Positions 169 through 15,473 of a DNA stretch of 15,473 nucleotides are shown here, in pieces (position 1 is the first letter of the stretch; each line of letters begins with the position of its first letter). A program made the position numbers and the translations under genes. The DNA is taken from assembly GCA_965221955.1 (NCBI GenBank), contig CBDCTA010000013.1, forward strand, positions 1 through 15,473. The letters are read 5' to 3'. The stretch is from Gammaproteobacteria bacterium (GTDB taxonomy: Bacteria; Pseudomonadota; Gammaproteobacteria; UBA4575). The notes under the pieces are model-generated. The model made no database searches and was not told the DNA's origin. It saw only the letters and a program-made list of their open reading frames with translations.

Positions 169-573
169 CTAATCAGGCTTTATGGCAAATCGACCACTAC
201 CAAACAGTAGAACCAATAATCCTCCTGCCAAGTAAAAAGCTTGTAACTCTAATCTCCAGCCACCATGCTCAGTCAACATCAATAAGTGATCCGCGTGCAC
301 CAACACAATCGCGAAAATCATATTCACAAATATTAAAAACCCTCCAAATCGAGAGTAGATTCCCAGCAGAATTAATATCGGCGCAACAATTTCTCCTACA
401 TAGACTCCATAAGCAAATATAGGATGCATTCCAATATTTACGAGTTGATTTTTAATAAACCCAAGTGTTTGTAAATCATATAATTTTGCGACACCATGGA
501 ATAACATTAAGCCACCCACCACAAGCCTGAGAATAAGTTTGGCAAAATCTTCGGTTCGATAAACAGTACTCAT
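169..573 (-). CDS. DoxX family inner-membrane protein
   Basis: 134 aa with about 4 hydrophobic helices; DoxX-type motifs LILRLVVGGLMLFHG, GEIVAPILILLG..SR, GGWRLELQAFYL and terminal GSGRFA. GAGG Shine-Dalgarno at 584-581. Confidence 0.9.
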   Translation of the reverse strand: MSTVYRTEDFAKLILRLVVGGLMLFHGVAKLYDLQTLGFIKNQLVNIGMHPIFAYGVYVGEIVAPILILLGIYSRFGGFLIFVNMIFAIVLVHADHLLMLTEHGGWRLELQAFYLAGGLLVLLFGSGRFAIKPD

Positions 574-724
574 TGCAAGTCCTCATTAAATGTCCTTAAT
601 ATAGAATGCTACCTTAAAGATGGAGTATTTAAATTTTGGTCACTAATTAACCTAATCTTATCGCTTTTTAGTCAACTCGTATCCCCTCAGATTATTATAG
701 TGACACTTGATTTTGTGTAGCATG

Positions 725-742
725 AAACCATTTATATGGTTT
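725..742. promoter_or_regulatory. Inverted repeat, candidate transcription-factor operator in the divergent doxX / protease intergenic region
   Basis: AAACCAT-TTAT-ATGGTTT, perfect 7-bp arms with a 4-nt spacer. Confidence 0.35.
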
Positions 743-814
743 TGAGGCCACATATATACCTAATAACAGCGTTGGGCAACTTGCAGCTCCATCACGATTA
801 ACTTTAATTTAAAA

Positions 815-1342
815 ATGAAAATAATTACCAGGAAGAACATTACAATCTTTTCGATCCTATCTATATTCTGCTCATGTTTTGTCACAAGTAATTTACTTGC
901 TAAAGACCCTGCAAGAGTGATAGCTGGCTGGGTAGAAAAAGTTCGTATCAATGGCCATGATTTTGAGGTAAAAGCTAAGCTTGATACTGGCGCACGAACA
1001 TCTTCTATTCATGCTAAAGATATTAAGTCATTTAAAAAAGACGGAGTACGCTGGGTTAAATTTACGTTGGTATTAACCGATAGCAAAGATAATAAACATG
1101 AAATTCCTATAGAAAAGCCACGTTCACGAAGAACAAATATTAAAAATCACGATGGTGAACATGACAAACGCCACGTTGTCGATTTTGAAATTTGCTTCAA
1201 TGGGCGCACATATACAACTGAATTTACTTTAGCAGACCGTCGTGAGTACATCTATGACGTGTTACTAGGTAGACAATTTCTCAAGAAAACAGCCATCGTG
1301 GACCCCAAGCAAATCTTTCTCACTACCGCAAAATGTGAATAA
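815..1342 (+). CDS. Exported retropepsin-like aspartic protease of the RimB / 'putative ATP-dependent zinc protease' (Zn_protease) family
   Basis: Signal-peptide-like N-terminus (..SNLLA|KD); family motifs GWVEKV, AKLDTGARTSSIHA (catalytic DTG), EFTLADR and VLLGRQFL. Confidence 0.88.
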   Translation: MKIITRKNITIFSILSIFCSCFVTSNLLAKDPARVIAGWVEKVRINGHDFEVKAKLDTGARTSSIHAKDIKSFKKDGVRWVKFTLVLTDSKDNKHEIPIEKPRSRRTNIKNHDGEHDKRHVVDFEICFNGRTYTTEFTLADRREYIYDVLLGRQFLKKTAIVDPKQIFLTTAKCE

Positions 1343-1417
1343 AGTTCTATAATTGCTTAAAACTGAAAAGTTACCTTTTAAAATAGCAACCATAATCCTC
1401 CTTGCTCTAAAACACTG

Positions 1418-2941
1418 ATGCATAAATTAACAGTCCGTTTATGGTCTATTTTCTTTATCGTTATTGGTTTAGCTATTTTTGCGCATAAAGTTTTTCAACT
1501 CGGTATACCGATTACTCCTGATGCGACTACCGAAACCTGGACAATCCAAGCACGTTTAACCTTTATTGGAAATGGCAAAAATATTAAAGCTTCACTAGCC
1601 GTTCCGAACGTTACCCCTGGATATATAAAAATTGATGAACATTATATATCGGGTGATTTTGGGCTCAATGCCAAAATTATTGGCGATAACAAAACAGCTG
1701 AATGGGCTAAACGCAAAGCCTTAGGTCAACAAACACTTTACTATCGCACTACACTGACCCAATCCAGAGTCGCAACAAAATGGACAAAGGTACCAGAATA
1801 TCCTCAAGCACCTGAATTTTTTGAGCCCTACTCTACTGCAGTAAACAAAATCATTGAAGACGTACGCAACCATTCTGCAGATACCGCATCATTCACATAT
1901 GAACTAATCAATCAACTTCGCTCATCTGATAAAAATGAAAACATTTCATTAGTGAAAGGTTTGGCTAGAACAGATGAACAAATTGCTGACTTAATTACAA
2001 AACTTTTAGCCGTAGCGCATATCCCAACACGAAAAATTTGGCTAATAGGTCTCGCTGATGCAGCAAACGACGTTATTCCTCGCATATTTATTCAGTCTTA
2101 TAACGGAGAAGAATGGTTAACCTTTAATCCAAAAACAGGTGCATCAGGCATACCCGCAGAACATATTATTTGGAAAGTTGGTGACACTCCGCTTTATACT
2201 CTAAAAGGAGGAAATTCTGCAGAAGTGACCTTCTCAGTAACAAAATCTTTTATCGAATTACTAGACGTAGCTAAATTAACAACCGAGAAAAAAAGCTCCA
2301 TTCTAGGCAAACTGACTTTATTTTCTTTACCAGTACAAAGTCAAAATACTTTTAGCTTAATTTTAATGGTGCCATTAGGCGCTTTACTTGTTGTGTTCAT
2401 GAGAACATTTGTTGGCGTTCAAACTTTTGGTACATTTATGCCAATATTAATAGCCATTGCATTTCGAGAGACTCAACTACTTTGGGGAGTCATACTTTTT
2501 ACCGTCATTGTATTTATTGGCTTACTGATTCGTTTATATCTTGAGCGCTTGCGCCTCTTATTAATTCCACGACTTGCTGCAATCTTAGTAATTGTCGTAA
2601 TTCTGATGTTAATCATTAGCTTTGCTACCAGTCAGTTAGGCCTTGATCGTTTGTTATCAATCTCATTATTCCCCATGGTTATTCTCGCTATGACGATTGA
2701 ACGCATGTCTATCACTTGGGAGGAAAGCGGTGCTCAAAATGCTTTAATTCAAGGTCTTGGAAGTTTGCTTGTGGCTTGTTTAGGTTATTTAATTATGACT
2801 AATCAGCACTTGATATATATGATGTTCGCCTTTCCAGAGTTTTTGCTTGTTGTATTAGGTATATGTATTTGGATGGGTCGTTATACTGGTTATCGAATTA
2901 GCGAACTACTTAGATTTCGTGAAATAAAAACTTCTATGTAA
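1418..2941 (+). CDS. Inactive transglutaminase-like domain fused to a C-terminal multi-TM domain (Transglut_i_TM / 7TM_transglut type)
   Basis: N-terminal TM anchor, soluble domain with a degenerate transglutaminase core (LLAVAHIPTR...QSYNGEEWLTFNP), then about 7 hydrophobic helices with GVQTFGTFMP, FPMVILAMTIERMSITWEE and GRYTGYRISELLRF. Lies between the protease and the ATP-grasp gene, the neighbourhood known for this family. Confidence 0.9.
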   Translation: MHKLTVRLWSIFFIVIGLAIFAHKVFQLGIPITPDATTETWTIQARLTFIGNGKNIKASLAVPNVTPGYIKIDEHYISGDFGLNAKIIGDNKTAEWAKRKALGQQTLYYRTTLTQSRVATKWTKVPEYPQAPEFFEPYSTAVNKIIEDVRNHSADTASFTYELINQLRSSDKNENISLVKGLARTDEQIADLITKLLAVAHIPTRKIWLIGLADAANDVIPRIFIQSYNGEEWLTFNPKTGASGIPAEHIIWKVGDTPLYTLKGGNSAEVTFSVTKSFIELLDVAKLTTEKKSSILGKLTLFSLPVQSQNTFSLILMVPLGALLVVFMRTFVGVQTFGTFMPILIAIAFRETQLLWGVILFTVIVFIGLLIRLYLERLRLLLIPRLAAILVIVVILMLIISFATSQLGLDRLLSISLFPMVILAMTIERMSITWEESGAQNALIQGLGSLLVACLGYLIMTNQHLIYMMFAFPEFLLVVLGICIWMGRYTGYRISELLRFREIKTSM

Positions 2942-2946
2942 AGTCT

Positions 2947-3885
2947 ATGGCAAGTTTAATTAACCCTACACAGCTTAGAAAGAAAGGTATTCTCGGAATC
3001 AATCAACGTAATAGCGATTACATCATGCGTTATAACAAACGCAGTCTTTATCCTTTAGTTGATGACAAATTACAAACCAAACAACTTGCAATTAACGCAG
3101 GAGTTTCTGTTCCTAAACTCTACGCTATCATTAAATATCACCATCAACGAAAAGATTTAGAAAATCTTTTAAAGGAGCATGGGGATCTAGTGATTAAGCC
3201 TGCACATGGTAGTGGTGGAAATGGAATACTAGTAATCCAAAGCAAAGTCGGCAAACTTTATAAAACGCCTAGTGGCGATCTAATGAGTATTAATGCAATT
3301 AAGCATTATGTATCGAACATACTCTCTGGCATGTACAGTTTGGGAGGTGTGCCTGATCGGGCTTTTTTAGAATACCGAATTCAGTTTGATCCTATTTTTG
3401 ATGATATTAGTTTCAAAGGTGTGCCAGACATTCGTATTATTGTTTTCCGTGGAGTACCCGTCTCTGCAATGGTGCGACTTCCCACAAGCGAATCCAATGG
3501 TAAGGCAAATCTTCATCAAGGCGCTATTGGAGTGGGAATTGATCTCAAAAGCGGTTGCACTACGCATGGGGTTGTAGGAAATGCATTGACTAACTATCAT
3601 CCGGATACTGGTCACCCGATTGAAGGTATACAAATTCCACGCTGGAAAGAAATTTTACAAATCGCTGTTAAATGTTCAGATACAGTTGGTTTAGGTTATT
3701 TAGGTGTGGATATCGTCTTAGATCGTACGCTTGGCCCTCTAATGCTTGAACTGAATGCACGGCCTGGCTTGAATGTGCAATTAGCCAATCAACGTGGACT
3801 TCTATCAAACTTAAACACTATTGAGCGCTTAGAGAAAATACCGTCCCAAATAGACCAACGTGTAAACTTTGCACAATCCTTATAA
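2947..3885 (+). CDS. Alpha-L-glutamate ligase-like ATP-grasp protein (RimK-related)
   Basis: ATP-grasp motifs VDDKLQTK, VIKPAHGSGGNGI, DIRIIV, KANLHQG, GVDIVLD and LELNARPGL; no signal peptide; 5 nt after the upstream stop. Confidence 0.92.
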   Translation: MASLINPTQLRKKGILGINQRNSDYIMRYNKRSLYPLVDDKLQTKQLAINAGVSVPKLYAIIKYHHQRKDLENLLKEHGDLVIKPAHGSGGNGILVIQSKVGKLYKTPSGDLMSINAIKHYVSNILSGMYSLGGVPDRAFLEYRIQFDPIFDDISFKGVPDIRIIVFRGVPVSAMVRLPTSESNGKANLHQGAIGVGIDLKSGCTTHGVVGNALTNYHPDTGHPIEGIQIPRWKEILQIAVKCSDTVGLGYLGVDIVLDRTLGPLMLELNARPGLNVQLANQRGLLSNLNTIERLEKIPSQIDQRVNFAQSL

Positions 3886-3899
3886 ACGAATCTTTAGAA

Positions 3900-5264
3900 G
3901 TGATTATCCAGAATAAAAATGCTTTTGGTTTAATTTGCTTAGTTTTACTTCTAGGAATCACACTTTTTAACTCGACGTGTTTTGCGAAAGAGCAAAACAC
4001 ACACGATGAAGCTACTTCTGTAGAAGCCAGCCAAGAAGCTGAAGAAATAAAAGTTGCCCCTAATCTCGACTTAAAGGAAGTTGCCCCTCCTCCTGAACCC
4101 GTAGTTGCAGTCCCAAAAGAAGACGAACAAGTAAAGAGTGACGAAAGTTTTAAAGAAATTGAAACAATTCCAGAAGATGAAAAACCAGAAGAATTAATAC
4201 TGGAAGAACCAACACAAACTGAAAACATAAAAAAAATTCCCGAGCGAAAAAAATTAGTTATATTAGGCTCAGAAGTTTCACCTGGCACTTCGACACGTTT
4301 GGCTTGGTCTCCTGAGGTCAGTATTTCAGGACTCTCTTTACCCACACCAGTATTAGTTATCAATGGATCTAAACCAGGACCCACATTGTGTTTAACTGGT
4401 GCCATTCATGGTGATGAATTAAATGGCATTGAAGTTGTTCGTCGTGTGATGTACGACATTAATCCTGATGATTTAAGTGGCACCATTATCGGTGTACCTA
4501 TCGTTAATCTACAAGGCTTTCAACGCGGATCCAGATATTTATCAGATCGACGTGACCTAAATCGTTTTTTCCCAGGTGAAGAAAATGGCAGCTTAGCTTC
4601 AAGAATTGCGCACTCACTATTTTCAGAAGTTATTACTCACTGTGAATATTTAATTGATTTGCATACGGGCTCACTACGTAGAACAAATTTGCCGCAAATA
4701 AGAGCCAATATGAGCAATCCAAACGTAGCTAAATTTGTAGAAGGCTTCGATAAAATAGCCATCGTCCACCATCCCGGCAACACTGGTATGTTGAGAACCG
4801 CCGCAAACAATATTGGTATCATTGCCGTAACAATGGAGTTGGGTGAATCACTTCGTATTCAAGAAAACCAAATTGCGGCTGGCACGCATAGTGTAAATAG
4901 CTTACTGGATAAGTTTGAAATGTATCCACGAGTCTTTATTTGGGGTGAGCCAAAACCCGCATATTATGAATCCACTTGGATACGTGTTGAAAGTGGCGGC
5001 ATATTATTTAGCCAAATGGGCTTGGGTGATCGTGTTTCGGTTGGTGATGTTTTGGGCGTCGTAACGGATCCTATTACCAATCAAAGCTCAAATTTAGAAG
5101 CACACATTAATGGACACATTATTGGCATGGCCGTTAACCAAGTTGTAATGCCAGGATTTGCGGCCTACCACATTGGAATAGAATCTAATCAAAAAGAAAT
5201 GGTAAAAGTTGAAGAAAACACACTTTTAGACGTCCAGCCAAATGGTGAGTTAGACCCAGAATAA
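3900..5264 (+). CDS. Exported M14-type zinc carboxypeptidase (succinylglutamate desuccinylase/aspartoacylase family) with acidic low-complexity N-terminal extension
   Basis: GTG start (approximate); signal peptide ..STCFA|KE; Zn and substrate motifs GAIHGDELNG, RDLNRFFPG, IDLHTG, and candidate catalytic Glu in TMELG; C-terminal hybrid-barrel-like segment (GDRVSVGDVLGVV). 14 nt after the ligase stop. Confidence 0.88.
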   Translation: MIIQNKNAFGLICLVLLLGITLFNSTCFAKEQNTHDEATSVEASQEAEEIKVAPNLDLKEVAPPPEPVVAVPKEDEQVKSDESFKEIETIPEDEKPEELILEEPTQTENIKKIPERKKLVILGSEVSPGTSTRLAWSPEVSISGLSLPTPVLVINGSKPGPTLCLTGAIHGDELNGIEVVRRVMYDINPDDLSGTIIGVPIVNLQGFQRGSRYLSDRRDLNRFFPGEENGSLASRIAHSLFSEVITHCEYLIDLHTGSLRRTNLPQIRANMSNPNVAKFVEGFDKIAIVHHPGNTGMLRTAANNIGIIAVTMELGESLRIQENQIAAGTHSVNSLLDKFEMYPRVFIWGEPKPAYYESTWIRVESGGILFSQMGLGDRVSVGDVLGVVTDPITNQSSNLEAHINGHIIGMAVNQVVMPGFAAYHIGIESNQKEMVKVEENTLLDVQPNGELDPE

Positions 5265-5395
5265 TTAAAATAAAAGTACTAATTCTTCAGTATTTGATTG
5301 CTCTTAAATTTAAATAAAAATTACTTTCGAGTACGATATAAGAATTCACCCATACAAATCAAATAGATTGGAACTAAAGGATTAATAACAAGAAT

Positions 5396-5419
5396 ATATA
5401 TGTGGCAATTTACATATAT
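5396..5419. promoter_or_regulatory. Inverted repeat upstream of deaD, candidate operator or weak hairpin
   Basis: ATATATGT-GGCAATTT-ACATATAT, perfect 8-bp arms with an 8-nt spacer. Confidence 0.3.
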
Positions 5420-5543
5420 GACTTTCCCCAAGCGCACTATCCAAAATGATTTACTAAATTAATCAAAATAATGTGTGCAACCACGATTATAACCCGCTAC
5501 CCTACAAACCTTTTCCTAGCCTAGTAAATTCAAAATAATCATT

Positions 5544-5583
5544 TGGTTTTCAGGTGCTCTAGAAGCAATTCCTGAAAAAACCA
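5544..5583 (+). promoter_or_regulatory. Extended RNA stem-loop in the probable deaD 5' leader
   Basis: TGGTTTTCAGG (5544-5554) pairs with CCTGAAAAAACCA (5571-5583, 2-nt bulge); the inner stem TGCT/AGCA closes a CTAGA loop. Confidence 0.45.
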
Positions 5584-5605
5584 TATTATCCAAATATACA
5601 TCTGC

Positions 5606-7345
5606 ATGAGCATCACAGCACCTATGACTTTTAAGCAACTTGCGTTGAACACCGCCTTATTAAAATCATTAGACAAGATCGGCTATGAAATGCCTTCACC
5701 CATTCAGTCGCAAACCATACCGTTGCTATTAGAAGGTGGTGATTTAGTTGGACAAGCTCAAACTGGTACGGGTAAAACTGCAGCATTTGCATTGCCAATC
5801 TTAAATAATTTGGATTTCAAGCAAAAAGAACCACAAGTTTTAGTGCTGACCCCTACTCGTGAACTTGCCATTCAAGTTTCAGAGGCATTTAAGAAATATG
5901 CCGCGAATCTAAAAAACTTTCATGTGTTACCAATCTATGGTGGACAAGACTATCGTGGACAAATCCGCGCATTACAACGTGGAGTTCATATTGCTGTAGG
6001 CACTCCAGGACGCGTGATGGATCATATGCGACGCGGCACTCTTAAGCTCGAAAACCTAACAACTTTAGTACTTGATGAAGCCGATGAAATGCTGCGCATG
6101 GGCTTTATTGAAGACGTTGAATGGGTGCTTGAACAAATCCCTAAAAAAAGACAAATTGCGTTATTTTCTGCAACCATGCCGCAACAAATTCGACGTATTG
6201 CAAAAAAATACTTAAACAATCCATCTGAAGTAACTATAAAAGTTAAAACCACTACGGCAGATACAATTCGCCAACGTTTCTGGCCTGTGAGTGGGATGCA
6301 TAAATTAGATGCACTTACACGTATTCTCGAAGCAGAACAATTTGAGGCTATGCTGATATTTGTACGAACTAAAACAGCAACTACCGAACTTGCAGATAAA
6401 TTAGCAGCTCGAGGTTATGCATCAGCAGCTTTGAATGGTGATATTGCACAAAAAAATCGTGAACGTACTATTCATCAGTTGAAAAGTGGAAAAATTGACT
6501 TGCTCGTTGCCACTGATGTTGCCGCACGTGGTTTAGATGTGGAGCGTATCAGCCATGTTATCAATTATGACATTCCATATGACACTGAAGCTTATGTACA
6601 TCGTATAGGACGTACCGGTCGTGCTGGGCGCCAAGGTGATGCTATTTTATTTGTGGCACCTCGTGAAAAACATTTGTTACACGCTATTGAAAAAGCAACG
6701 AAACAAAAAATAGATATGATGGATCTGCCTTCCACGGAAATCATCAATAACAAACGCATTGTTAAATTTAAACAAAAAATTACAGACACATTAGCAAACG
6801 AAGATTTAGGCTTATTTACAAATTTAATTGAGCAATATCAAACTGAACACAATGTGCCCGCAAATGAAATTGCTGCAGCATTGGCGCAATTGCTACAAGG
6901 TGACACTCCGTTTCTATTAAAGAAAAAGCACAATCCAATCCTTCAGCAAGACTGGGGCAATAATAGCTCTCATGAAAGGAACACCAAATCAAAAAAGAAT
7001 AATAGATCTAAAAAGCACACTCAAACCAAAAACATCTCATTAAAAAAAGGTATGCAGCGCTTTCGTTTAGAAGTAGGTCGCAAACATAAAGCTAAGCCTG
7101 GCAATATTGCTGGGACAATTGCTAATGAAGCAGGTTTAGAGAGTCAACATATAGGAAAAATTAACATTTATGACGAGTATAGTGAAATTGATTTACCAGA
7201 AGGTATGCCTAAAGATATTTTTAATAGTTTAAAAAAGACTCGGGTAGCTGGACAGAAACTCAATATATCGCTTCTACACTCTACCGATAAACCTAAAGAA
7301 AAAAATCGTAGAAGAAAAAGGAAAAAGGAAAAACTAGCTAAGTAA
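5606..7345 (+). CDS. deaD: ATP-dependent DEAD-box RNA helicase DeaD/CsdA
   Basis: Q motif (GYEMPSPIQ), AQTGTGKT, PTRELA, DEAD, SAT, ARGLD and HRIGRTGRAG; C-terminal DbpA-type RNA-binding domain (RFRLEVGRKHKAKPGNI..IANEAG) and a basic tail. Alternative start ATG at 5624. Confidence 0.95.
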   Translation: MSITAPMTFKQLALNTALLKSLDKIGYEMPSPIQSQTIPLLLEGGDLVGQAQTGTGKTAAFALPILNNLDFKQKEPQVLVLTPTRELAIQVSEAFKKYAANLKNFHVLPIYGGQDYRGQIRALQRGVHIAVGTPGRVMDHMRRGTLKLENLTTLVLDEADEMLRMGFIEDVEWVLEQIPKKRQIALFSATMPQQIRRIAKKYLNNPSEVTIKVKTTTADTIRQRFWPVSGMHKLDALTRILEAEQFEAMLIFVRTKTATTELADKLAARGYASAALNGDIAQKNRERTIHQLKSGKIDLLVATDVAARGLDVERISHVINYDIPYDTEAYVHRIGRTGRAGRQGDAILFVAPREKHLLHAIEKATKQKIDMMDLPSTEIINNKRIVKFKQKITDTLANEDLGLFTNLIEQYQTEHNVPANEIAAALAQLLQGDTPFLLKKKHNPILQQDWGNNSSHERNTKSKKNNRSKKHTQTKNISLKKGMQRFRLEVGRKHKAKPGNIAGTIANEAGLESQHIGKINIYDEYSEIDLPEGMPKDIFNSLKKTRVAGQKLNISLLHSTDKPKEKNRRRKRKKEKLAK

Positions 7346-8321
7346 CCAACCCTTGTCTTACAAACATAATCAAAATTAGCATTAGCAACGTCACGATCCA
7401 CATCAAGACATATACCTTCATTCGCTTCTTGGCCTTTTCCTTCTTCCACCAACTACGCGGGCTAATTCCTTTTATAAAAAACACTATATTACAAGCGAGA
7501 TTCACGCATACGATATTTATTGCTAATAATAAAGTTGCCCCTAATGCAAAGTTAATATTCCCATAACCCAACATAATGCCTACTGTTGCAGCTGGCGGCA
7601 GCAAGGCTACAGCAACCATCACACCTACCAATACACTTGATAAACCAGTTGTCAAAGACAATGCAGCCGCAGCACCTGAGGCTAATGCGAATGCTACAGA
7701 ATCTAACCCAACTTCAGTTCTTGAAATCAACTCTGCACTAAATGCATCGGTAGGCCACATATAACCAATAAAAATAGACATAATCACCGCTATTGCAATG
7801 CCTATTAGTGTTGTAAATATAGATTTCAGCATTAATGAAACATCACCTAATGCCGTTCCCAAACCCAAAGCAAGGTTTGGTCCCAATAAAGGCGCAATCA
7901 CCATTGCCCCGATAATGACCGCGACGTTATCTTTAATAAGACCCACTGCAGCAACGATTGTGGATAAAACCACTAACAACACAAAACCAGAATCTAAGTG
8001 AGAATTTTTTTCAACATCTTTATAAAGCGTTTCTCGAGTTGTAGTTGCAAGATCCTCATCTCTTCGCTGTTCATCTGAAAGTTTAGGAAGAGATATTTCT
8101 ATAGGCAATACTACAATTCTTTCATTCGGCTGAGTTTCTAAGGCACGCTGCAATTTATCAAGCGTGTCCTGAATTTTATTGTCAGGCACCAACAAACGCA
8201 TTTGTTGCAAACCATCTTCATCAAGGTGCCCTAGCCTGAAATCAGGCACTTCTAACTGTTGAGCAATTGCAGCTACAGTATCTACATGTCCAGCATCTGC
8301 AACAACTTCAACATATTTCAT
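7338..8321 (-). CDS. DUF389 / TIGR00341 family integral membrane protein
   Basis: Small soluble N-terminal domain followed by about 7 TM helices; motifs AVIIGAMVIAPLLGP and LVGVMVAVALLPPAA. Stop overlaps the deaD 3' end by 8 nt. Confidence 0.88.
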   Translation of the reverse strand: MKYVEVVADAGHVDTVAAIAQQLEVPDFRLGHLDEDGLQQMRLLVPDNKIQDTLDKLQRALETQPNERIVVLPIEISLPKLSDEQRRDEDLATTTRETLYKDVEKNSHLDSGFVLLVVLSTIVAAVGLIKDNVAVIIGAMVIAPLLGPNLALGLGTALGDVSLMLKSIFTTLIGIAIAVIMSIFIGYMWPTDAFSAELISRTEVGLDSVAFALASGAAAALSLTTGLSSVLVGVMVAVALLPPAATVGIMLGYGNINFALGATLLLAINIVCVNLACNIVFFIKGISPRSWWKKEKAKKRMKVYVLMWIVTLLMLILIMFVRQGLVT

Positions 8322-8329
8322 AGCAAGTA

Positions 8330-8345
8330 ATCAAAATATTTTGAT
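8330..8345. repeat. Perfect 16-bp palindrome just upstream of the DUF389 start codon
   Basis: ATCAAAATATTTTGAT equals its own reverse complement and ends 8 nt before the - strand ATG at 8321. Confidence 0.5.
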
Positions 8346-8369
8346 CAGGAAGTTTCGAATTGTGAAATG

Positions 8370-8813
8370 CTAATCTTTGTTAATCACATAATTAAGAATT
8401 TCAACGACTTGATCAGGGGTTCGCGCCCATGCCATTGCAGCCGCATCAACTTCTTTTAAAGGATGAATAATGTTTTCATCATGTAAAGTTATATATGGCT
8501 TACCAAGAGCAGCACAACAACCTGCATCAAATGCAGCATTCCATTGCTTATATTTATCACCAAAACGCACCACTGCTACATCGCATTTTTCGATTAGTGT
8601 TTTAGTGCGGATGCTGTTTACTTTTGATGATTTATGGTCTCGCCAAAAGTTATTATCCTCTTGCCCAAGCAAATCACCCGCAGCATCACTTGCTTCATGG
8701 TCTGTTACAGCAGAAGTGAATGTTACGGGTAAACCATTTTGTTTCGCCCCAGCTTGTATCTGCTCTCTCCAGTCAGTATGGATCTCTCCTGATAAATATA
8801 TATTCCAATTCAT
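8370..8813 (-). CDS. ytoQ: YtoQ family protein (nucleoside 2-deoxyribosyltransferase-like fold)
   Basis: Family motifs YLSGEIHTDWR, RFGDKYKQWNAAFDAG and HPLKEVDAAA. Confidence 0.88.
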   Translation of the reverse strand: MNWNIYLSGEIHTDWREQIQAGAKQNGLPVTFTSAVTDHEASDAAGDLLGQEDNNFWRDHKSSKVNSIRTKTLIEKCDVAVVRFGDKYKQWNAAFDAGCCAALGKPYITLHDENIIHPLKEVDAAAMAWARTPDQVVEILNYVINKD

Positions 8814-8842
8814 AGTAGTTATTCAAAAAATATTTGATTAGA

Positions 8843-9310
8843 TTAATGAACATGTCCGTGAGCGATTTCATCTTCGGTCGCCTCACGTACGTTGACGATA
8901 TTAATGTCAAAATTCAATTCAACACCTGCTAATGGATGGTTTCCATCAATAGTAACTTGATCGCCCTCAACTTTTTTAACAACTATCCGTTGTGGACCAT
9001 TTGGTCCTTGAGCTTCAAACATCATTCCTGCTTCCAAAGTTTCTACATCTTGAAAAGCAGCTTTATCAATGGTTTGAATTAACTCTTGCAATACTTCTCC
9101 GTAACCCTCTTCTGGAGCAACTTTCACAGTAATCGTGTCCTGCTCAACCTTTCCGATTAAAGCCTTCTCTAATCCGGGAATAATATTTCCTGCGCCGTGT
9201 AAATAAGTAAGTGGCTCCATTCCTTCAGAACTATCTATTACATTTCCATCATTATCAGTAAGTTTATAGTGCATGCTCACCACTGAATTCTCGCCAATTA
9301 ATAACGACAT
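8843..9310 (-). CDS. slyD: FKBP-type peptidyl-prolyl cis-trans isomerase SlyD
   Basis: PLTYLHGAGNIIPGLEKAL, PEEGYG, IDGNHPLAGVELNF and REATEDEIAHGHVH; AGGA Shine-Dalgarno upstream. Confidence 0.93.
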   Translation of the reverse strand: MSLLIGENSVVSMHYKLTDNDGNVIDSSEGMEPLTYLHGAGNIIPGLEKALIGKVEQDTITVKVAPEEGYGEVLQELIQTIDKAAFQDVETLEAGMMFEAQGPNGPQRIVVKKVEGDQVTIDGNHPLAGVELNFDINIVNVREATEDEIAHGHVH

Positions 9311-9367
9311 ATCGGTTCCTAATTATTTAAAAAGATTGTCATCTTACACATGATGTATAGCATTACA

Positions 9368-10051
9368 CTATCTAATAATTGCTAGCCACCTCCACAAACT
9401 CAAAACATCAGCCAATGCGGCCGCTACGTAAGTTAAGGCACAGGCTTTTAGCACCTGGCGAATAGCAGGCATATGCTTTATTGGTATCAGATTATCGTGC
9501 TCAAGCATGGGTAAGGCTTTATTAAAACTCGCATCCCATTCTTCTGGCAGTATGGCTACATACATAGACACTGAAGCCAGCATCGTAATGACTCCAATAA
9601 TTGCTGTGAGAAAAGCGATATATGGAACACGAAATATTAAAGTAACAATAGGAATGCTAATTAAAATAAAAATACCTATTTGGCGTATCTGATGTGCTTT
9701 ATTTAAATATTTTCCACGCAACCGACTTACTGGTTCGTTTCGATTAAATTGAATTGCATGTCCTACTTCATGTGCAGCAACAGCCACTGCTGATAATGAC
9801 TTACCTGTATACACTTCAGGGCTAAGACAAACAGTGTTGGAAGAAGGGTTATAATGGTCATTCTCTTTTAAACCTTTTACCAGTTCTACCTCATTAAGCT
9901 CATACTTCTCCAGCAAATATGAAGCCAGTTCGCCACCTGTACCGGGCATATTTTCAATATGTTCATGATGTTTTTTAAGCACATAGCGCACCCAGATTTG
10001 TGGCGCATAGATAACGATTACAAACGCAATAATGACGAAAGCATATAGCAT
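9368..10051 (-). CDS. Membrane zinc metallopeptidase, YugP / Zn_peptidase_2 family
   Basis: DHYNP, AVAAHEVGHAIQ (HExxH), LPEEWDAS and VLKACALTYVAAAL; TM segments at the N-terminus and centre. Confidence 0.9.
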   Translation of the reverse strand: MLYAFVIIAFVIVIYAPQIWVRYVLKKHHEHIENMPGTGGELASYLLEKYELNEVELVKGLKENDHYNPSSNTVCLSPEVYTGKSLSAVAVAAHEVGHAIQFNRNEPVSRLRGKYLNKAHQIRQIGIFILISIPIVTLIFRVPYIAFLTAIIGVITMLASVSMYVAILPEEWDASFNKALPMLEHDNLIPIKHMPAIRQVLKACALTYVAAALADVLSLWRWLAIIR

Positions 10052-10069
10052 AGGTCGCTTACAAATAAC

Positions 10070-10150
10070 TTAGAAAAATAATCCATACATTGAATAGAAT
10101 GAAACCAACAAACCAAGTCCTAAAAGTAATATTAAGCTTAGCTTTTTCAT
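10070..10150 (-). CDS. Candidate 26-aa single-pass membrane peptide (not in the ORF track)
   Basis: ATG 10150-10148 to TAA 10072-10070: MKKLSLILLLGLGLLVSFYSMYGLFF. Wholly intergenic and co-oriented with its neighbours, but no clear Shine-Dalgarno. Confidence 0.4.
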   Translation of the reverse strand: MKKLSLILLLGLGLLVSFYSMYGLFF

Positions 10151-10161
10151 GAAGTACAATA

Positions 10162-10186
10162 TATTTATCAGGCGTGTAGATAAATA
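10162..10186. other. AT-rich inverted repeat downstream of lpdA (weak terminator-like hairpin or operator)
   Basis: TATTTATC-AGGCGTGTA-GATAAATA, 8-bp arms. No GC-rich stem and no clean U-tract. Confidence 0.25.
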
Positions 10187-10241
10187 AATAAGGCAAAGTT
10201 CAGCTTGATAACTATAAAATCATTAAAAATCTTATAAAAAA

Positions 10242-11660
10242 TTATATGTGTATTGCACGCTCGTCTACTGCGAGCGCAGCTTCGTGCATGCCTTCTGCAA
10301 GGGTTGGATGGGCATGAATCGTACGCGCCAAGTCTTCTGTTGAAAGCTCAGACTCCATTGCAACAACAGCTTCTGAAATCAGCTCAGATGCATTTGGCCC
10401 AAGAATATGGACACCAAGGATTTGATCTGTTTCTTGATCAGAAATAATTTTAAACAACCCTTCTGTATCGCCCATCGCACGTGCCCGACCTAATGCCATA
10501 AAGGGGAATGTTCCAACGCGATATTTAATATTTGCTTGTTTACATTCTTGCTCAGTTTTGCCTGCCCATGCAAACTCAGGCCAAGTGTAAATTACCCAAG
10601 GAATGTTGTCGTGATTCATTTCAGCATATTGACCCGCTAACAGCTCTGCTACAGCAATACCTTCTTCCGAGCCTTTATGTGCAAGCATTGCACCCCCGAT
10701 AACATCTCCAATTGCATAAATGTTAGGTGTAGAAGTTTTCCATTGATTATCAGTTGTTACGAATCCTTTTTCGTCTGTTTTAACTTTTGCGGCATCTAGA
10801 TTCAAACGTGTTGTATTAGGTTTACGGCCCACTGCAACAATTAACTTATCTACTTCTAATGATTTTTCTTCACCTTTTGACTCGTACTTAACTAGCGCTT
10901 TATGTGCGCTGACATTTACTTCTTTAACTAAACTATCTAAACGGATATCTAAGCCTTGTTTTGTTAGCATCTTTTGTGCTTCTTTCGCAGTCGTTTGATC
11001 TGCGCTTGGCAGAAAACTAGACAACGCCTCTAAAATAACTACTTCCGAACCCAGGCGCTTCCACACACTCCCCATTTCTAAACCAATTACACCTGCCCCA
11101 ATAATACCTAGGCGTTTTGGGGCTTCTTGCAAATTCAATGCACCGGTAGAATCTAGAATGGTTTCTTGATCTATCTTTGCAATAGGAATATCAATCGGAA
11201 CTGAACCACTTGCGATGACAATCTGTTTTGCTTGCAATTCTTCTGAGGTACCGACTGAATTATTTCTGACGTTGACTGAAGTTTCCGAAATAAAACTCGC
11301 AGTGCCAACGATCACTTCTACTTTATTTTTTTTCAATAGGCTTGCAACACCACCAGTAAGCACCTGAACAACTTTATCTTTACGCTTTTGCATGGTGGGT
11401 ACATCTACCTCTACCTTGCTAAGCTTAATACCATGATCTTTAGCCTGTTCATTTAGAAAATGTACATGGTGACTAGAATCAAGCAATGCTTTTGATGGAA
11501 TACAGCCTACATTTAAGCATGTACCCCCTAATGTTGATTTGCCTTTCGAATTTACCCATTCATCTATACAGGCCACTTTCATGCCGAGTTGTGCACAACG
11601 AATTGCACATACATAACCTGCCGGTCCTGCACCGATAATGACTACATCAAACTTTTTCAT
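10242..11660 (-). CDS. lpdA: Dihydrolipoamide dehydrogenase (E3)
   Basis: FAD-binding IGAGPAGY, redox disulfide GGTCLNVGCIPSK, NAD-binding IGAGVIGLE and active-site HAHPTLAE; 7 nt downstream of sucB. Confidence 0.97.
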   Translation of the reverse strand: MKKFDVVIIGAGPAGYVCAIRCAQLGMKVACIDEWVNSKGKSTLGGTCLNVGCIPSKALLDSSHHVHFLNEQAKDHGIKLSKVEVDVPTMQKRKDKVVQVLTGGVASLLKKNKVEVIVGTASFISETSVNVRNNSVGTSEELQAKQIVIASGSVPIDIPIAKIDQETILDSTGALNLQEAPKRLGIIGAGVIGLEMGSVWKRLGSEVVILEALSSFLPSADQTTAKEAQKMLTKQGLDIRLDSLVKEVNVSAHKALVKYESKGEEKSLEVDKLIVAVGRKPNTTRLNLDAAKVKTDEKGFVTTDNQWKTSTPNIYAIGDVIGGAMLAHKGSEEGIAVAELLAGQYAEMNHDNIPWVIYTWPEFAWAGKTEQECKQANIKYRVGTFPFMALGRARAMGDTEGLFKIISDQETDQILGVHILGPNASELISEAVVAMESELSTEDLARTIHAHPTLAEGMHEAALAVDERAIHI

Positions 11661-11667
11661 GATTAGT

Positions 11668-12984
11668 TCAGACTTGCAGTAAAAGCCTATTTGGGTCTTC
11701 TATAATGCTTTTAACATGACCCAAAAACTGTACAGCCTCTTTACCATCAATAATGCGATGGTCATAACTCAATGCTAAATACATCATTGGCGCAATAACC
11801 ACTTCTCCATTTTGCGCGATTGGACGTGCTTGAATAGAGTGCATACCTAAAATTGCACTTTGAGGCGGATTAATAATAGGTGTAGACATCATTGAGCCAA
11901 ACACACCGCCATTAGAAATGGTAAATGTGCCACCTGTTAATTCTTCTATCGTTATTTTATTCTCCTGCGCACGCATAGCCATATCATTTATCGCTTTTTC
12001 TATGTCTGCGAAAGACAAACTATCTGCATCACGTACTATTGGAACAATTAATCCTCTTTGCGTGCTCACCGCAACACCGATATCAAAATAATCGTGATAA
12101 ATGATATCAGTATCTTCGATCGATGCATTGATGAGTGGAAACTCTTTTAAGGCTTCTACAGTAGCTTTAACAAAGAACGACATAAATCCAAGCTTTACTC
12201 CATGTGCTTCCTCAAAGCTCTCTTTATAACGCTTACGCAAATCCATAATATTTTGCATATTGACCTCGGTAAAGGTCGTTAACATTGCGCTTTCATGCTG
12301 CGATTGCACCAAACGTTTAGATATGCTCTTACGCAAAGCTGTCATAGGAACACGCTTATCTTCACGCGTACTCGAAATTAAATTTGGTACAAATTGAGGT
12401 GCGGTCATAATCTCAGTGGCAGAATCTAGCTCACTTGCTGTAGCAGGTTCAGTTGAATCAATTACCGCTTCGATATCTTTTTTGGTTACACGCCCATCCT
12501 TACCTGTCCCATGAATCGTGCTTATATCGATATTATTTTCTGCTGCAAGTTTTCTTACAGCTGGACTGGTTTTAGATACACTAGTATTTGTTACTTGCTC
12601 AGAATTTGGAGCTTGACTTGGCGCAACATTAATTTCAGGTTTTATTTGCGAAACTGTATTCACGCTTGTTACTGCAGAAATAGATTCTGAAACACTTGAT
12701 CTTTCCTGATCAGATTCTTCATTAGCTGAAGCTTTTGTACCTTTTTTACTGGTATTGATTACTGCAATTACTTCATTACTTTGTACATGTTCGTTTTTAT
12801 GTTTAGTTATGGAAGCAAGCTCTCCAGTTTGTGGGGCAGTAATTTCTAAAATAACTTTATCCGTTTCCACATCAACCAATTGCTCCCCTTCTTCCACGAA
12901 ATCACCAGGTTTTTTCAACCAATCACCCATTATGGCTTCTGTCACTGATTCCGCTAATTCAGGAATCGTTACATCTACTTTCAT
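11668..12984 (-). CDS. sucB: 2-oxoglutarate dehydrogenase E2, dihydrolipoyllysine succinyltransferase
   Basis: Lipoyl domain (VETDKV), peripheral subunit-binding domain ([20 protein letters not shown]) and catalytic GTFTISNGG and YDHRIIDG; GAGG Shine-Dalgarno. Confidence 0.97.
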
Positions 12985-13011
12985 GACAATACCTCAGTTT
13001 TCATGAATATG

Positions 13012-15473
13012 TTATACGGCACGAAGCGGTGGCCTTGACACCTGCTCTCGCAAGCCCAATGCATCTTCGATTAAAGCTTGTTGTTGTTCTCTATGGATAT
13101 GCAATGAACCTGCTGCTGGTGACGCAGAGTACGTTCTACCTGCATATCTCAAGTTATGATCTTCACGTATACAAGCTTTCATATTACGCCTAGATTGTAT
13201 AAAGAACCATGCACCTTGATTACGCGGCTCTTCTTGACACCATACCAATTCGCGCACACCGGAATATTTATTAATGATCTGTTTAACTTCATCTTGCGGG
13301 AATGGATATAATTGCTCAATTCGCACAATAGCAGTGTTATTAATTTTATGCATACTGCGCGCTTTAACTAACTCATAGTAAAGCTTACCAGCACAGAAGA
13401 TAATCCTTTTTACTTCAGCCGGATTCATATCGGTAACTTCGTCTAATACATTATTAAATTGGCCTTCAGTAAATTCATGCATAGGTGACGAAGCAATAGG
13501 ATCACGCAATATATTTTTCGGCGTCATCACGATTAAAGGTTTACGATAAGGACGTAACATTTGTCGACGCAACATATGAAAAATTTGCGAAGGTGAGCTT
13601 GGCATGCACACTTGCATATTATCTTCTGCACAAAGTTGCAAATAGCGCTCTAATCGAGCAGAAGAATGCTCGGGCCCTTGACCATCATAACCATGTGGCA
13701 ACAACATTACTAAACCGCAATAACGTTGCCATTTCGCTTCGGATGAACTTAAAAATTGATCCACATACATTTGCGCATTATTCGCAAAATCACCAAACTG
13801 AGCTTCCCAAATTACTAAAGTCTCAGGATCTGCAGTGCTATACCCTACTTCATAACCCAACACAGCTTCTTCAGATAACAATGAATTAATCGGTAAGAAT
13901 AATGGCTGATCCTTAGCAATATGACGTAAAGGAACATAGGTTTCCCCTGTGGTTTGGTCATGGAACCCCGCATGCCGATGAAAAAAAGTACCTCGCACAC
14001 AATCTTGACCAGATAGGCGTACAGAAAAACCGTCTTCAAGTAATGAAGCATAGGCTAAGGTTTCACCAAATCCCCAATCTGCATTTAATTCGTCATTACC
14101 CATTTTAATTCGTGCATCGACAATTTTCTGCACAGTGCGATGCAAATTAAAACCTTTAGGTATCGTTGTGAATTTCTTGGTTAAATCTTTAACACGTTTA
14201 GTTGTGATTTTCGTATTCGCTTTATCACGCCAATGTGTACCAATATAAGATTTATAATCGACCACGTACTTACGATTAATTTTCTTGGCTATTGGTCCAC
14301 AAACACGTTCACCTCTTTGCAATTTATTTAAATACTTAGTTTCTAAGGCCTTAACACGTGATGGTGTAATTGTTTTATTACGCACTAAACGATTAGCGTA
14401 CACTTTTCGAACGCCTTCTTTATGACGTATTGCTTGATACATGAGTGGTTGTGTTACAGATGGTTCATCTGCTTCATTATGTCCATGTTGGCGATAACAA
14501 ATCATATCGATCACCACATCACGCTTGAACTTCATACGAAAATCCACTGCGAGTTTAGAAACATAGGCAACTGCTTCAGGGTCATCGCCATTCACATGAA
14601 ATATTGGCGCTTGAACCATTTTAGCAACATCTGTGCAATATAACGTTGAACGTGAATCTAGTGGGTCACTAGTGGTAAAACCGATTTGATTATTCACCAC
14701 AACATGAATGCTCCCTCCGGTAGTGTATCCACGTGTCTTAGAAAGATTGAGTGTTTCCATGACTACACCTTGCCCCGCAAATGCTGCATCACCATGAATC
14801 AATAATGGCATCGCATCGACACGCTCATTATCTTTACGTCTTTCTTGTCTAGCACGTACCGACCCTTCTACCACAGGGTTGATTGCTTCCAGGTGCGAAG
14901 GATTGAAAGCAAGTACTGTGTGTACTGGCGCATGGTCAGTTTTTAAATTTGACGAGAAACCTTTATGGTATTTCACATCGCCCGAACCTGAAGCTGGATC
15001 AAGTGTGTCTTCAAACTCTTGGAAAAGTTTTTCAGGACTTTTTCCCAAAATATTTACCAGTACATTTAATCTACCTCGATGAGCCATTCCCATAATGACT
15101 TCACTCACTTTATGAAACCCACAACGCCGAATAATTTCATCAATACTTACAATTAAACTCAAACCACCTTCTAATGAAAAGCGTTTTTGACCCACATATT
15201 TTTTATGCAGGTATACTTCAAGTGATTTTGCGGCGATGAGTGTTTCTAAAATTGTACGCTTGCGCTTATCCGATAAACCACTTGAAAGATAAAATTGTTC
15301 TAAACGTTGCTGAATCCATTCTTTTTGTTCAGGTGAAGTTATATGCTTGAATTCAGAACCAATCGTTCCACAGTATGTGACAGAAAGCATATTGATAATT
15401 TCACGTAATGGCGCTTTTTTGATACCCCCCAGTGAACCAGTTTCAAAAACCGTTTCCATATCTGCATGGGTTA
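13012..15473 (-). CDS. sucA: 2-oxoglutarate dehydrogenase E1 component, 5'-truncated by the window edge
   Basis: GQKRFSLEG, GMAHRGRLN, ThDP motif HGDAAFAGQG, WEAQFGDF and GPEHSSARLER. The frame stays open to base 15473 (..THAD-METVF), so the Met at 15459 is internal. Confidence 0.97.
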   Translation of the reverse strand, partial: THADMETVFETGSLGGIKKAPLREIINMLSVTYCGTIGSEFKHITSPEQKEWIQQRLEQFYLSSGLSDKRKRTILETLIAAKSLEVYLHKKYVGQKRFSLEGGLSLIVSIDEIIRRCGFHKVSEVIMGMAHRGRLNVLVNILGKSPEKLFQEFEDTLDPASGSGDVKYHKGFSSNLKTDHAPVHTVLAFNPSHLEAINPVVEGSVRARQERRKDNERVDAMPLLIHGDAAFAGQGVVMETLNLSKTRGYTTGGSIHVVVNNQIGFTTSDPLDSRSTLYCTDVAKMVQAPIFHVNGDDPEAVAYVSKLAVDFRMKFKRDVVIDMICYRQHGHNEADEPSVTQPLMYQAIRHKEGVRKVYANRLVRNKTITPSRVKALETKYLNKLQRGERVCGPIAKKINRKYVVDYKSYIGTHWRDKANTKITTKRVKDLTKKFTTIPKGFNLHRTVQKIVDARIKMGNDELNADWGFGETLAYASLLEDGFSVRLSGQDCVRGTFFHRHAGFHDQTTGETYVPLRHIAKDQPLFLPINSLLSEEAVLGYEVGYSTADPETLVIWEAQFGDFANNAQMYVDQFLSSSEAKWQRYCGLVMLLPHGYDGQGPEHSSARLERYLQLCAEDNMQVCMPSSPSQIFHMLRRQMLRPYRKPLIVMTPKNILRDPIASSPMHEFTEGQFNNVLDEVTDMNPAEVKRIIFCAGKLYYELVKARSMHKINNTAIVRIEQLYPFPQDEVKQIINKYSGVRELVWCQEEPRNQGAWFFIQSRRNMKACIREDHNLRYAGRTYSASPAAGSLHIHREQQQALIEDALGLREQVSRPPLRAV

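Follow-up and report, generated by a model that had tools for sequence, protein, structure and literature searches.

The window analysed here, 15,473 nt (positions 1-15,473 of contig CBDCTA010000013.1) of a Gammaproteobacteria bacterium (GTDB lineage UBA4575; GenBank assembly GCA_965221955.1), carries at positions 815-3885 a copy of the rloABC operon and, at 3900-5264, a lineage-specific fourth member of the cluster, which encodes a secreted AstE/AspA-type zinc hydrolase and is referred to below as gene 4. The secreted clade to which this enzyme belongs co-occurs strictly with rloB in the genomes sampled, it is placed as the sister of a hydrolase encoded beside rimK, and the two types are cleanly split in a tree; these three observations are new here. 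The locus as a whole is real, well conserved and mostly already explained, and the accessory enzyme is its modestly novel part. We regard it as the best overall explanation, with about an even chance of being right, that rloABC and gene 4 together make, present and break down a glutamate-rich chain.

The four open reading frames (ORFs) lie on the forward strand and are separated by gaps of 75, 5 and 14 nt, the arrangement described in an earlier interpretation that was made from the letters of the window alone (hereafter the sequence-only reading). Families were assigned by profile searches with Pfam (E up to 0.01) and NCBIfam, hydrophobic segments were taken from hydropathy, and signal-peptide cleavage after A29 in both secreted proteins was read by eye. 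The features of the cluster are as follows.

815-1342, forward strand: rloA, secreted retropepsin-like aspartic endopeptidase, 175 aa (PF05618; NCBIfam RloA-type)
1418-2941, forward strand: rloB, inner-membrane protein, 507 aa, with a putatively inactive transglutaminase-like domain and a 7-helix domain (PF14400 and PF14402)
2947-3885, forward strand: rloC, cytoplasmic RimK-related ATP-grasp ligase, 312 aa (TIGR02291, PF14397)
3900-5264, forward strand: gene 4, secreted AstE/AspA-type zinc hydrolase, 454 aa, GTG start (PF24827)
3900-3986, forward strand: signal-peptide-like N-terminus of gene 4, residues 1-29, with a hydrophobic 19-mer
4053-4100, forward strand: conserved short motif VAPNLDLKEVAPPPEP of gene 4, residues 52-67, kept in the rloC-linked subclade
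4254-5189, forward strand: catalytic and C-terminal domains of gene 4, residues 119-430 (PF24827, model and structure alignment)

We considered how closely gene 4 is associated with the rlo genes in other genomes. The close relatives are uncultured metagenome-assembled genomes labelled Thiotrichales or Gammaproteobacteria; 18 of the 40 searched were rloB-positive, and in 16 of these 18 the hydrolase lies on the same contig, ~1 kb past the match to the seven-helix (7TM) domain of RloB. Of the other two, G004 has the genes on separate contigs, and in G037 the secreted type was not found. A broader survey covered 400 sampled Gammaproteobacteria that were at least 90% complete, with one further genome left unscored, and found PF14402 in 76 of the 400. 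Hydrolase matches in this set fell into a high-scoring class of 16 genomes (the window's own included; at least 330 bits, 12 GTDB family codes, 46-76% identity among the non-own matches, open frames of 408-560 aa) and a lower class of ~130 genomes (35-41% identity, frames of ~340-400 aa). All 16 genomes with the secreted clade are rloB-positive, as compared with 76/400 overall, and none of the 324 genomes that lack an rloB match yielded the clade; these counts overstate independence because the genomes are related. The co-occurrence that the sequence-only reading had proposed to look for is therefore present, and it does not depend on adjacency: in 7 of the 15 non-own genomes the hydrolase is unlinked to rlo, still with a signal-like N-terminus and an acidic linker, so that the secreted enzyme is tied to rlo by co-occurrence even there.

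The gene order itself is less constant. With 2 of the 76 genomes left out because they were flagged as unpublished, 73 rlo regions were examined, 63 of which have the canonical rloA-rloB-rloC set; in 6 of these, under 1.4 kb of sequence remains beyond rloC, leaving 57 assessable loci. The secreted hydrolase is directly downstream of rloC and co-oriented in 7 of the 57 (G014, G035, G225, G159, G189, G333 and G347, from five GTDB family codes), and in G247 it is divergent beside rloA, a second arrangement. Elsewhere the genes after rloC are unrelated housekeeping genes: among 24 downstream ORFs we found no other recurrent families, save for pairs within one genus or GTDB family (SIMPL, shikimate dehydrogenase and chorismate-binding proteins, each seen twice). 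The idea of a four-gene cluster acting as a unit thus survives in part, in that gene 4 is tied to rlo but does not generally follow rloC. We conclude that gene 4 is a lineage-restricted accessory and not a core member of the rlo system. As a side observation, the rloB 7TM region of G019, a relative from the same family, is split into frames of 143 and 156 aa (contig 1, 1574746-1575484), next to an intact secreted hydrolase gene, and rloB may be broken in that genome.

These counts also bear on the possibility that gene 4 has nothing to do with rlo, being for instance a periplasmic enzyme that scavenges N-acyl amino acids or peptides and came by chance to follow rloC in one lineage. The 50 of 57 assessable loci with nothing of this kind after rloC, together with the 7 of 15 non-own clade genomes in which the gene is unlinked, are what such an accident would predict. 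The presence of rloB in every one of the 16 clade genomes is difficult to square with it, as are the 14-nt gap without a terminator-like site, the second arrangement in G247 and the linkage of a paralogue to rimK. On this evidence we think a chance association very improbable.

The paralogue was found in the same genome, which encodes a second PF05618 protein and a second hydrolase on its contig 11. There, rimB (RimB being the best NCBIfam match) and rimK (457 bits, cut-off 331) are accompanied by a hydrolase that has no signal peptide and is 40% identical to gene 4. We collected 20 loci of this cytoplasmic type, chosen non-randomly (11 lie in genomes in which the secreted type occurs as well, and 9 were drawn from other entries of the match list), and in these chosen loci the hydrolase adjoins rimK in 19 and rimB in 16. 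A quick IQ-TREE analysis of 24 secreted and 24 cytoplasmic sequences splits the two types by one long branch, with a support of 100 in the Shimodaira-Hasegawa-like approximate likelihood ratio test (SH-aLRT), and within the secreted type a subclade of 15 rows (support 99) contains every rloC-downstream copy but that of G159. Gene 4 is accordingly placed, by sequence, as the sister of the rimK-linked cytoplasmic clade, and the location of that clade beside bona fide RimK points to a glutamyl-peptide substrate for the hydrolase.

We read the genome as holding two parallel sets of proteins, each with a ligase, an endopeptidase and a finishing hydrolase, of which one (Rim) acts within the cell and the other (Rlo) serves the envelope. 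The simplest reading of the sequences is that the set was duplicated and that the envelope copy would have gained signal peptides on both hydrolases, with its ligase becoming coupled to RloB. The rimK-linked hydrolase seems to have gone without mention in the Rim and Rlo papers searched: a literature search pairing RimK and desuccinylase yielded just two papers, both unrelated, a term search of the RimB paper (PMC11957791) gave no mention of a hydrolase partner, and in the main text of the rloABC paper (PMC12239564) the terms carboxypeptidase, deacylase, aspartoacylase, desuccinylase, M14 and metallopeptidase do not occur.

Several features of the Rim-type loci may be recorded here. In locus L013 (contig 11, 3000-16000) the rimB-rimK-hydrolase trio occupies 5068-7375 on the minus strand and is flanked on one side by an MscS-type channel fragment (4339-4839) and on the other by CorA and a 723-aa MscK/MscS-like channel, neighbours that give the cytoplasmic polyglutamate set an osmotic-stress context. 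The hydrolase of this trio (5068-5913, minus strand) is 281 aa long and ends in an unrelated tail, as compared with 340-350 aa in its relatives; a frameshift or an assembly error may have shortened it. In locus L074 (G271, contig 19) both systems form one block at 3292-8705, with rloA-rloB-rloC directly preceded, on the same strand, by rimK, the cytoplasmic hydrolase gene and rimB. Six further loci (L081-L086) encode divergent 7TM_transglut-like proteins with 23-33% identity to RloB (tblastn) and PF14402 scores of 92-124 bits; the divergent protein adjoins rimB, rimK and the cytoplasmic hydrolase in L083 and L084, and rimK and an RloA-type protease in L086, while L081, L082 and L085 have an RloA-type protease with no RloC detected. 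Rim-type sets may have in such proteins a membrane partner of a second kind.

Gene 4 itself is intact and, judging from its alignment with homologues, has kept its active-site residues. Its GTG start agrees with the start points of orthologues, and the N-terminus consists of a hydrophobic 19-mer at residues 2-20 and a putative cleavage site after C-F-A29, followed by an acidic, proline-rich linker; a comparable N-terminal segment occurs in every aligned member of the clade. PF24827 (AstE_AspA_cat) covers residues 159-337 with 153 bits (cut-off 25) and is the only Pfam family matched; the classical Peptidase_M14 family was not among the matches at E up to 0.01. The sequence-only reading had called the protein a signal-bearing M14 carboxypeptidase. 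The N-terminal segment is as it proposed, while the family is AstE/AspA, so that the M14 label describes a resemblance of fold and not a family assignment. Public annotation of the relatives, as 'succinylglutamate desuccinylase/aspartoacylase family protein' or 'predicted deacylase', follows the same lines.

An alignment of 36 gene 4-type sequences shows H170, D172 and E173 (an HGDE motif), H255 and E313 to be invariant, together with R212, R218, R222, R268 and R299, and the residues H170, E173, H255 and E313 align with the HGDE, H and ELG of the solved structures 3cdx and 6twl. We take these four residues to have the usual roles, a zinc-binding His-x-x-Glu with a distal His and a catalytic Glu.

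The AlphaFold2 (AF2) model of gene 4 has a mean predicted local distance difference test score (pLDDT) of 79.5. Its structured part spans residues 119-428; averaged in blocks of 10 residues, the score over 121-430 exceeds 90 for the most part and falls in places to 79, 67 and 82. The linker at residues 30-112 is disordered. The top Foldseek match is the deacetylase DoeB/EutE of the ectoine pathway, 6twm (E 2e-28, target-normalised TM-score 0.79), followed by 3na6, 3cdx and 2qj8, which are AstE/AspA proteins from structural genomics; the top four matches have E values of 1e-24 to 1e-28, and the model aligns with solved AstE/AspA-type structures across 307-323 columns. CphZ (8ein), which hydrolyses cyanophycin dipeptides, is matched at E 7e-19 with 15% identity. 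True AstE, aspartoacylase and M14 carboxypeptidases are more distant; carboxypeptidases D, M and O are matched at E ~3e-9 with query-normalised TM-scores of 0.34-0.35, and MpaA, a murein peptide amidase, is also present among the matches. By analogy with CphZ and the small-molecule deacylases, gene 4 would be more likely to take short oligoglutamates or C-terminal glutamates than a long polymer.

Two conserved elements lie outside the structured part. The motif (V/I)APN(L/V)DLK(E/D)(V/I)AP at 4053-4100 is kept in the rloC-linked subclade, while the rest of the linker (residues 30-118) varies freely. AF2 confidence is low at this motif (residues 52-67), which might act as a docking or self-inhibiting element. 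At the other end of the protein the acidic C-terminal tail is variable, yet within the rloC-linked subclade it ends in a conserved ...D-P-E (5256-5261).

Genes 1-3 are a new copy of a known system, because the P. aeruginosa rloABC operon, named and studied genetically in 2025 (Lormand et al., mBio 2025, PMC12239564, a paper on which we draw in part), encodes the same trio. The sequence-only reading had regarded the three-gene core as a conserved neighbourhood of uncharacterised product; its conservation is borne out, while the operon now has a name and known phenotypes (PMC12239564). Genes 1-3 show every testable defining feature of rloABC, although RloA and RloB score under the narrow NCBIfam cut-offs.

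For RloA, PF05618 is matched at 133 bits, and the best NCBIfam matches are RloA3 (142 bits), RloA (103) and RloA2 (89), all under their narrow cut-offs (210 for the RloA3 equivalog). A signal-like hydrophobic segment at residues 11-29 precedes the catalytic D57-T-G (residues 57-59), and D57, G59, R119, R142, G152 and R153 are at least 93% conserved across 60 RloA sequences. Sequence matches in the Protein Data Bank are 9g58, 9g59 and 2pma. The DTG protease with a signal peptide that had been described earlier is thus confirmed, and with gene 4 both hydrolases of the cluster have the hydrophobic N-terminal segments expected of extracytoplasmic enzymes, as had been predicted.

RloB matches PF14400 (156 bits) and PF14402 (323 bits) far over their cut-offs, and NCBIfam RloB at 468 bits, under the cut-off of 900. 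Eight hydrophobic helices are predicted, one at residues 4-22 and seven at 314-484, flanking a 291-residue extracytoplasmic loop. The loop contains no cysteine and, across 45 orthologues, no invariant Cys, His or Asp, W41 being its sole invariant residue, which is consistent with a dead transglutaminase. The 7-helix domain has buried charges that are invariant in the same orthologues (R329, R372, R385, E428, R429, E436, R493 and E496). These data agree with the earlier description of a membrane protein whose transglutaminase domain is dead.

RloC matches TIGR02291, 'alpha-L-glutamate ligase-like', at 449 bits (cut-off 314) and PF14397 at 302 bits, and it has no hydrophobic segment by hydropathy, as expected for the cytoplasmic RimK-related ATP-grasp ligase proposed earlier. 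Its ATP-grasp residues K84, D255, E268 and N270 are invariant in 45 orthologues, as is R272. There is also a weak match to the TTL family PF03133 (19.1 bits against a cut-off of 20.1).

Co-folding of RloB with RloC, a check that the sequence-only reading had suggested, gave an interface score (ipSAE) of 0.49, against 0.00 for the best of 3 controls, which counts as 'weak support' for an interaction; contacts agree by at least 87% among three runs, and the pLDDT of the partner is at least 81. In the calibration of the tool, 116 of 157 solved complexes and 2 of 215 mismatched pairs attained the mark; those that did so at 0.60 or less were only 18 of the 157 solved complexes but both of the 2 mismatches.

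Some of these properties would also fit a modification of the envelope that is not peptidic, in which RloC attaches an amino acid to a carboxylate of sugar, lipid-linked or peptidoglycan-related nature, the product being flipped or presented by RloB and deacylated by the hydrolase. The Pfam family of RloC is named 'sugar-transfer associated ATP-grasp', the solved AstE/AspA relatives of gene 4 deacylate small molecules, MpaA is among the fold matches, and the shape and beta-lactam phenotypes of the triple rloA mutant were tentatively tied to peptidoglycan by the authors of that work (PMC12239564). The specificity reported there for RloA is for long glutamate runs, and the sister clade of gene 4 lies beside bona fide RimK (457 versus 331 bits) in 19 of the 20 chosen loci; both facts speak for glutamyl chemistry, and we consider a non-peptide modification distinctly unlikely.

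We suggest instead that the cluster handles a glutamate-rich chain in four steps. Cytoplasmic RloC would make an alpha-linked chain, either free or as the tail of a carrier, and RloB, possibly serving as a dock for RloC, would carry or present the chain on the outer side of the inner membrane. Secreted RloA would then cut long glutamate runs, and gene 4, acting as an exo- or oligoglutamyl hydrolase, would convert the short products or C-terminal glutamates to free glutamate. This last step would parallel that of CphZ with cyanophycin dipeptides, and the cytoplasmic sister presumably does the same beside RimK and RimB.

The scheme accords with what is known of P. aeruginosa, where cells depend on three secreted RloA paralogues acting jointly to survive hypo-osmotic conditions, form biofilm, tolerate beta-lactams and keep a normal shape, where RloA cuts reporters with 8E and 10E but not those with 6 or fewer consecutive glutamates in vitro, and where deletion of rloB or rloC rescues the triple rloA mutant, rloB and rloC being epistatic to the rloA genes (PMC12239564). 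The role in hypo-osmotic and envelope stress comes from the phenotype of P. aeruginosa only (PMC12239564). The view that the product is made inside and processed outside, which the sequence-only reading had put forward, is thus in agreement with published genetics and biochemistry and with the survey of the sister clade, while from these we infer, rather than observe, a passage through the 7TM protein, as is the case for the product itself and for the substrate of gene 4.

A number of findings weigh against this explanation. The RloB 7TM domain, although modelled well (pLDDT 86.3), has no convincing transporter relative among the structural comparisons made with the model: the best Foldseek match to solved structures has an E value of 1.4, with nothing at E of 0.001 or below, and the best VIA matches are 8ahx_A RnfA (Z 9.0, root-mean-square deviation 3.3, 125 aligned) and 7xk3_E NqrE (Z 8.2), a Z of around 9 being, according to the tool, a level common for helical bundles. 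RloC, by score, would not count as a member of the RimK family (55 bits for TIGR00768 against a cut-off of 143, and 26 bits for PRK10446 against 331), and the name of its Pfam family, given above, refers to sugar transfer. To our knowledge, no product of RloC has ever been identified. Characterised AstE/AspA-type enzymes act, according to their entry titles, on small N-acyl amino acids or dipeptides and not on polymers, so that 'trimming a polymer' may be wrong in detail. Finally, the gene 4 clade was found in just 16 of the 76 rloB-positive genomes, and gene 4 is missing after rloC in 50 of the 57 assessable loci; the rlo system works without it in most lineages, including Pseudomonas. The co-occurrence counts, coming from related genomes, also overstate independence.

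The most closely related alternative keeps the glutamate chemistry and changes the target. RloC would add a glutamate tail to the C-terminus of a specific exported or membrane protein, and RloA and the zinc hydrolase would shorten or remove it, in the manner of TTLL and CCP on tubulin or of RimK and RimB on ribosomal protein S6. The ligase RimK, which is the nearest one characterised, places its tag on the C-terminus of a protein, and the conserved acidic '...D-P-E' C-terminus of the rloC-linked hydrolases could, speculatively, be an end that a glutamate ligase extends. No target protein is known for such a tail, and we know of no precedent for the modification of a Sec substrate by a cytoplasmic ligase prior to export. 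In the P. aeruginosa study, the two options given for the RloA substrate are free poly-alpha-glutamate and polyglutamylated protein, and the glutamate tails of RpsF-8E are cut by RloA in vitro; secreted proteins with glutamate runs were not found in P. aeruginosa in that work as covered here, and the one acidic candidate was left uncleaved (PMC12239564). On balance, we judge a tail-writing system unlikely.

Returning to a chain that is made, presented and degraded, a more specific version can be envisaged, which we put forward tentatively and consider doubtful as it stands. Two parallel glutamylation cycles, assembled from duplicated components, would operate in Gammaproteobacteria, one with RimK, RimB and the cytoplasmic hydrolase and the other with RloC, RloB and RloA, joined by the secreted hydrolase in some lineages; RloB would be a synthase-coupled exporter of a new kind, for alpha-polyglutamate, and the hydrolase would be the first bacterial extracytoplasmic deglutamylase, giving the osmolyte glutamate back to the cell.

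The finding has a bearing on the product of rloABC, a question left by the 2025 Pseudomonas work on genes that affect low-salt survival, biofilm formation and beta-lactam tolerance (PMC12239564). That a finishing hydrolase and a protease were both copied with signal peptides is independent comparative evidence that the substrate outside shares the poly-alpha-glutamate chemistry of RimK. A practical handle is provided as well, since the secreted hydrolase and its cytoplasmic sister are zinc enzymes, small and soluble, and open to direct assay of their substrates.

The remainder of the window (5606-15459) is housekeeping, with genes for a deaD-type RNA helicase, a DUF389 protein, YtoQ, an SlyD-like FKBP and a Zn_peptidase_2 protein, as well as lpd-sucB-sucA on the minus strand, and Pfam and NCBIfam annotation revealed no tie between these genes and the rlo cluster. 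A scan of positions 400-5700 for promoters and terminators was uninformative because the numbers of sites match those in shuffled sequences (15 promoter-like sites versus 17.7 +/- 4.6 and 4 terminator-like sites versus 3.5 +/- 1.7); none of either kind falls within the intergenic gaps.

Among known systems, P. aeruginosa rloABC is the closest, with the same three families in the same order, orientation and tight spacing as genes 1-3. The present copy differs in having the added secreted hydrolase 14 nt after rloC, and the genome differs in having one rloA-type gene and one rimB in place of three rloA paralogues. In a Shewanella vesicle screen, according to the portion of the source covered, disruption of an RloB-type gene raises vesicle production. 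Klebsiella CfmP was considered and set aside, since its source, as far as it was covered, assigns it to a different ATP-grasp family.

PgsBCA/CapBCAD, of which the sequence-only reading had seen an ATP-grasp-based analogue here, resembles the cluster by functional analogy only, in that an extracytoplasmic polyglutamate is synthesised in association with the membrane and has hydrolases dedicated to it. The analogy can be kept, but not as homology: the PgsBCA/CapBCAD ligase belongs to the Mur-ligase type and forms gamma linkages, and no Pgs- or Cap-type domain was matched in the four proteins by Pfam (E up to 0.01) or NCBIfam. The TTLL glutamylases and CCP (M14) deglutamylases of tubulin tails offer a conceptual parallel, an ATP-grasp glutamate writer with a zinc eraser of related fold, although they belong to other subfamilies and are cytosolic.

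The RimK/RimB (RimABK) system of S6 shares more with rlo, namely an ATP-grasp glutamate ligase, a retropepsin that cuts polyglutamate and, in the present genome and in 19 of the 20 chosen loci, an AstE/AspA-type sister hydrolase. Unlike the rlo set, the Rim proteins have no signal peptides and the standard locus has no RloB-type protein, and RloC falls below the RimK cut-off. The cyanophycin system differs in its beta-Asp-Arg polymer, in carrying out all steps in the cytoplasm and in a CphZ that is only 15% identical to gene 4; its sequence of synthetase, cyanophycinase and CphZ is nonetheless like the one proposed for rlo, with a polymer made by an ATP-grasp enzyme, cut internally and finished by a zinc hydrolase of the AstE/AspA fold.

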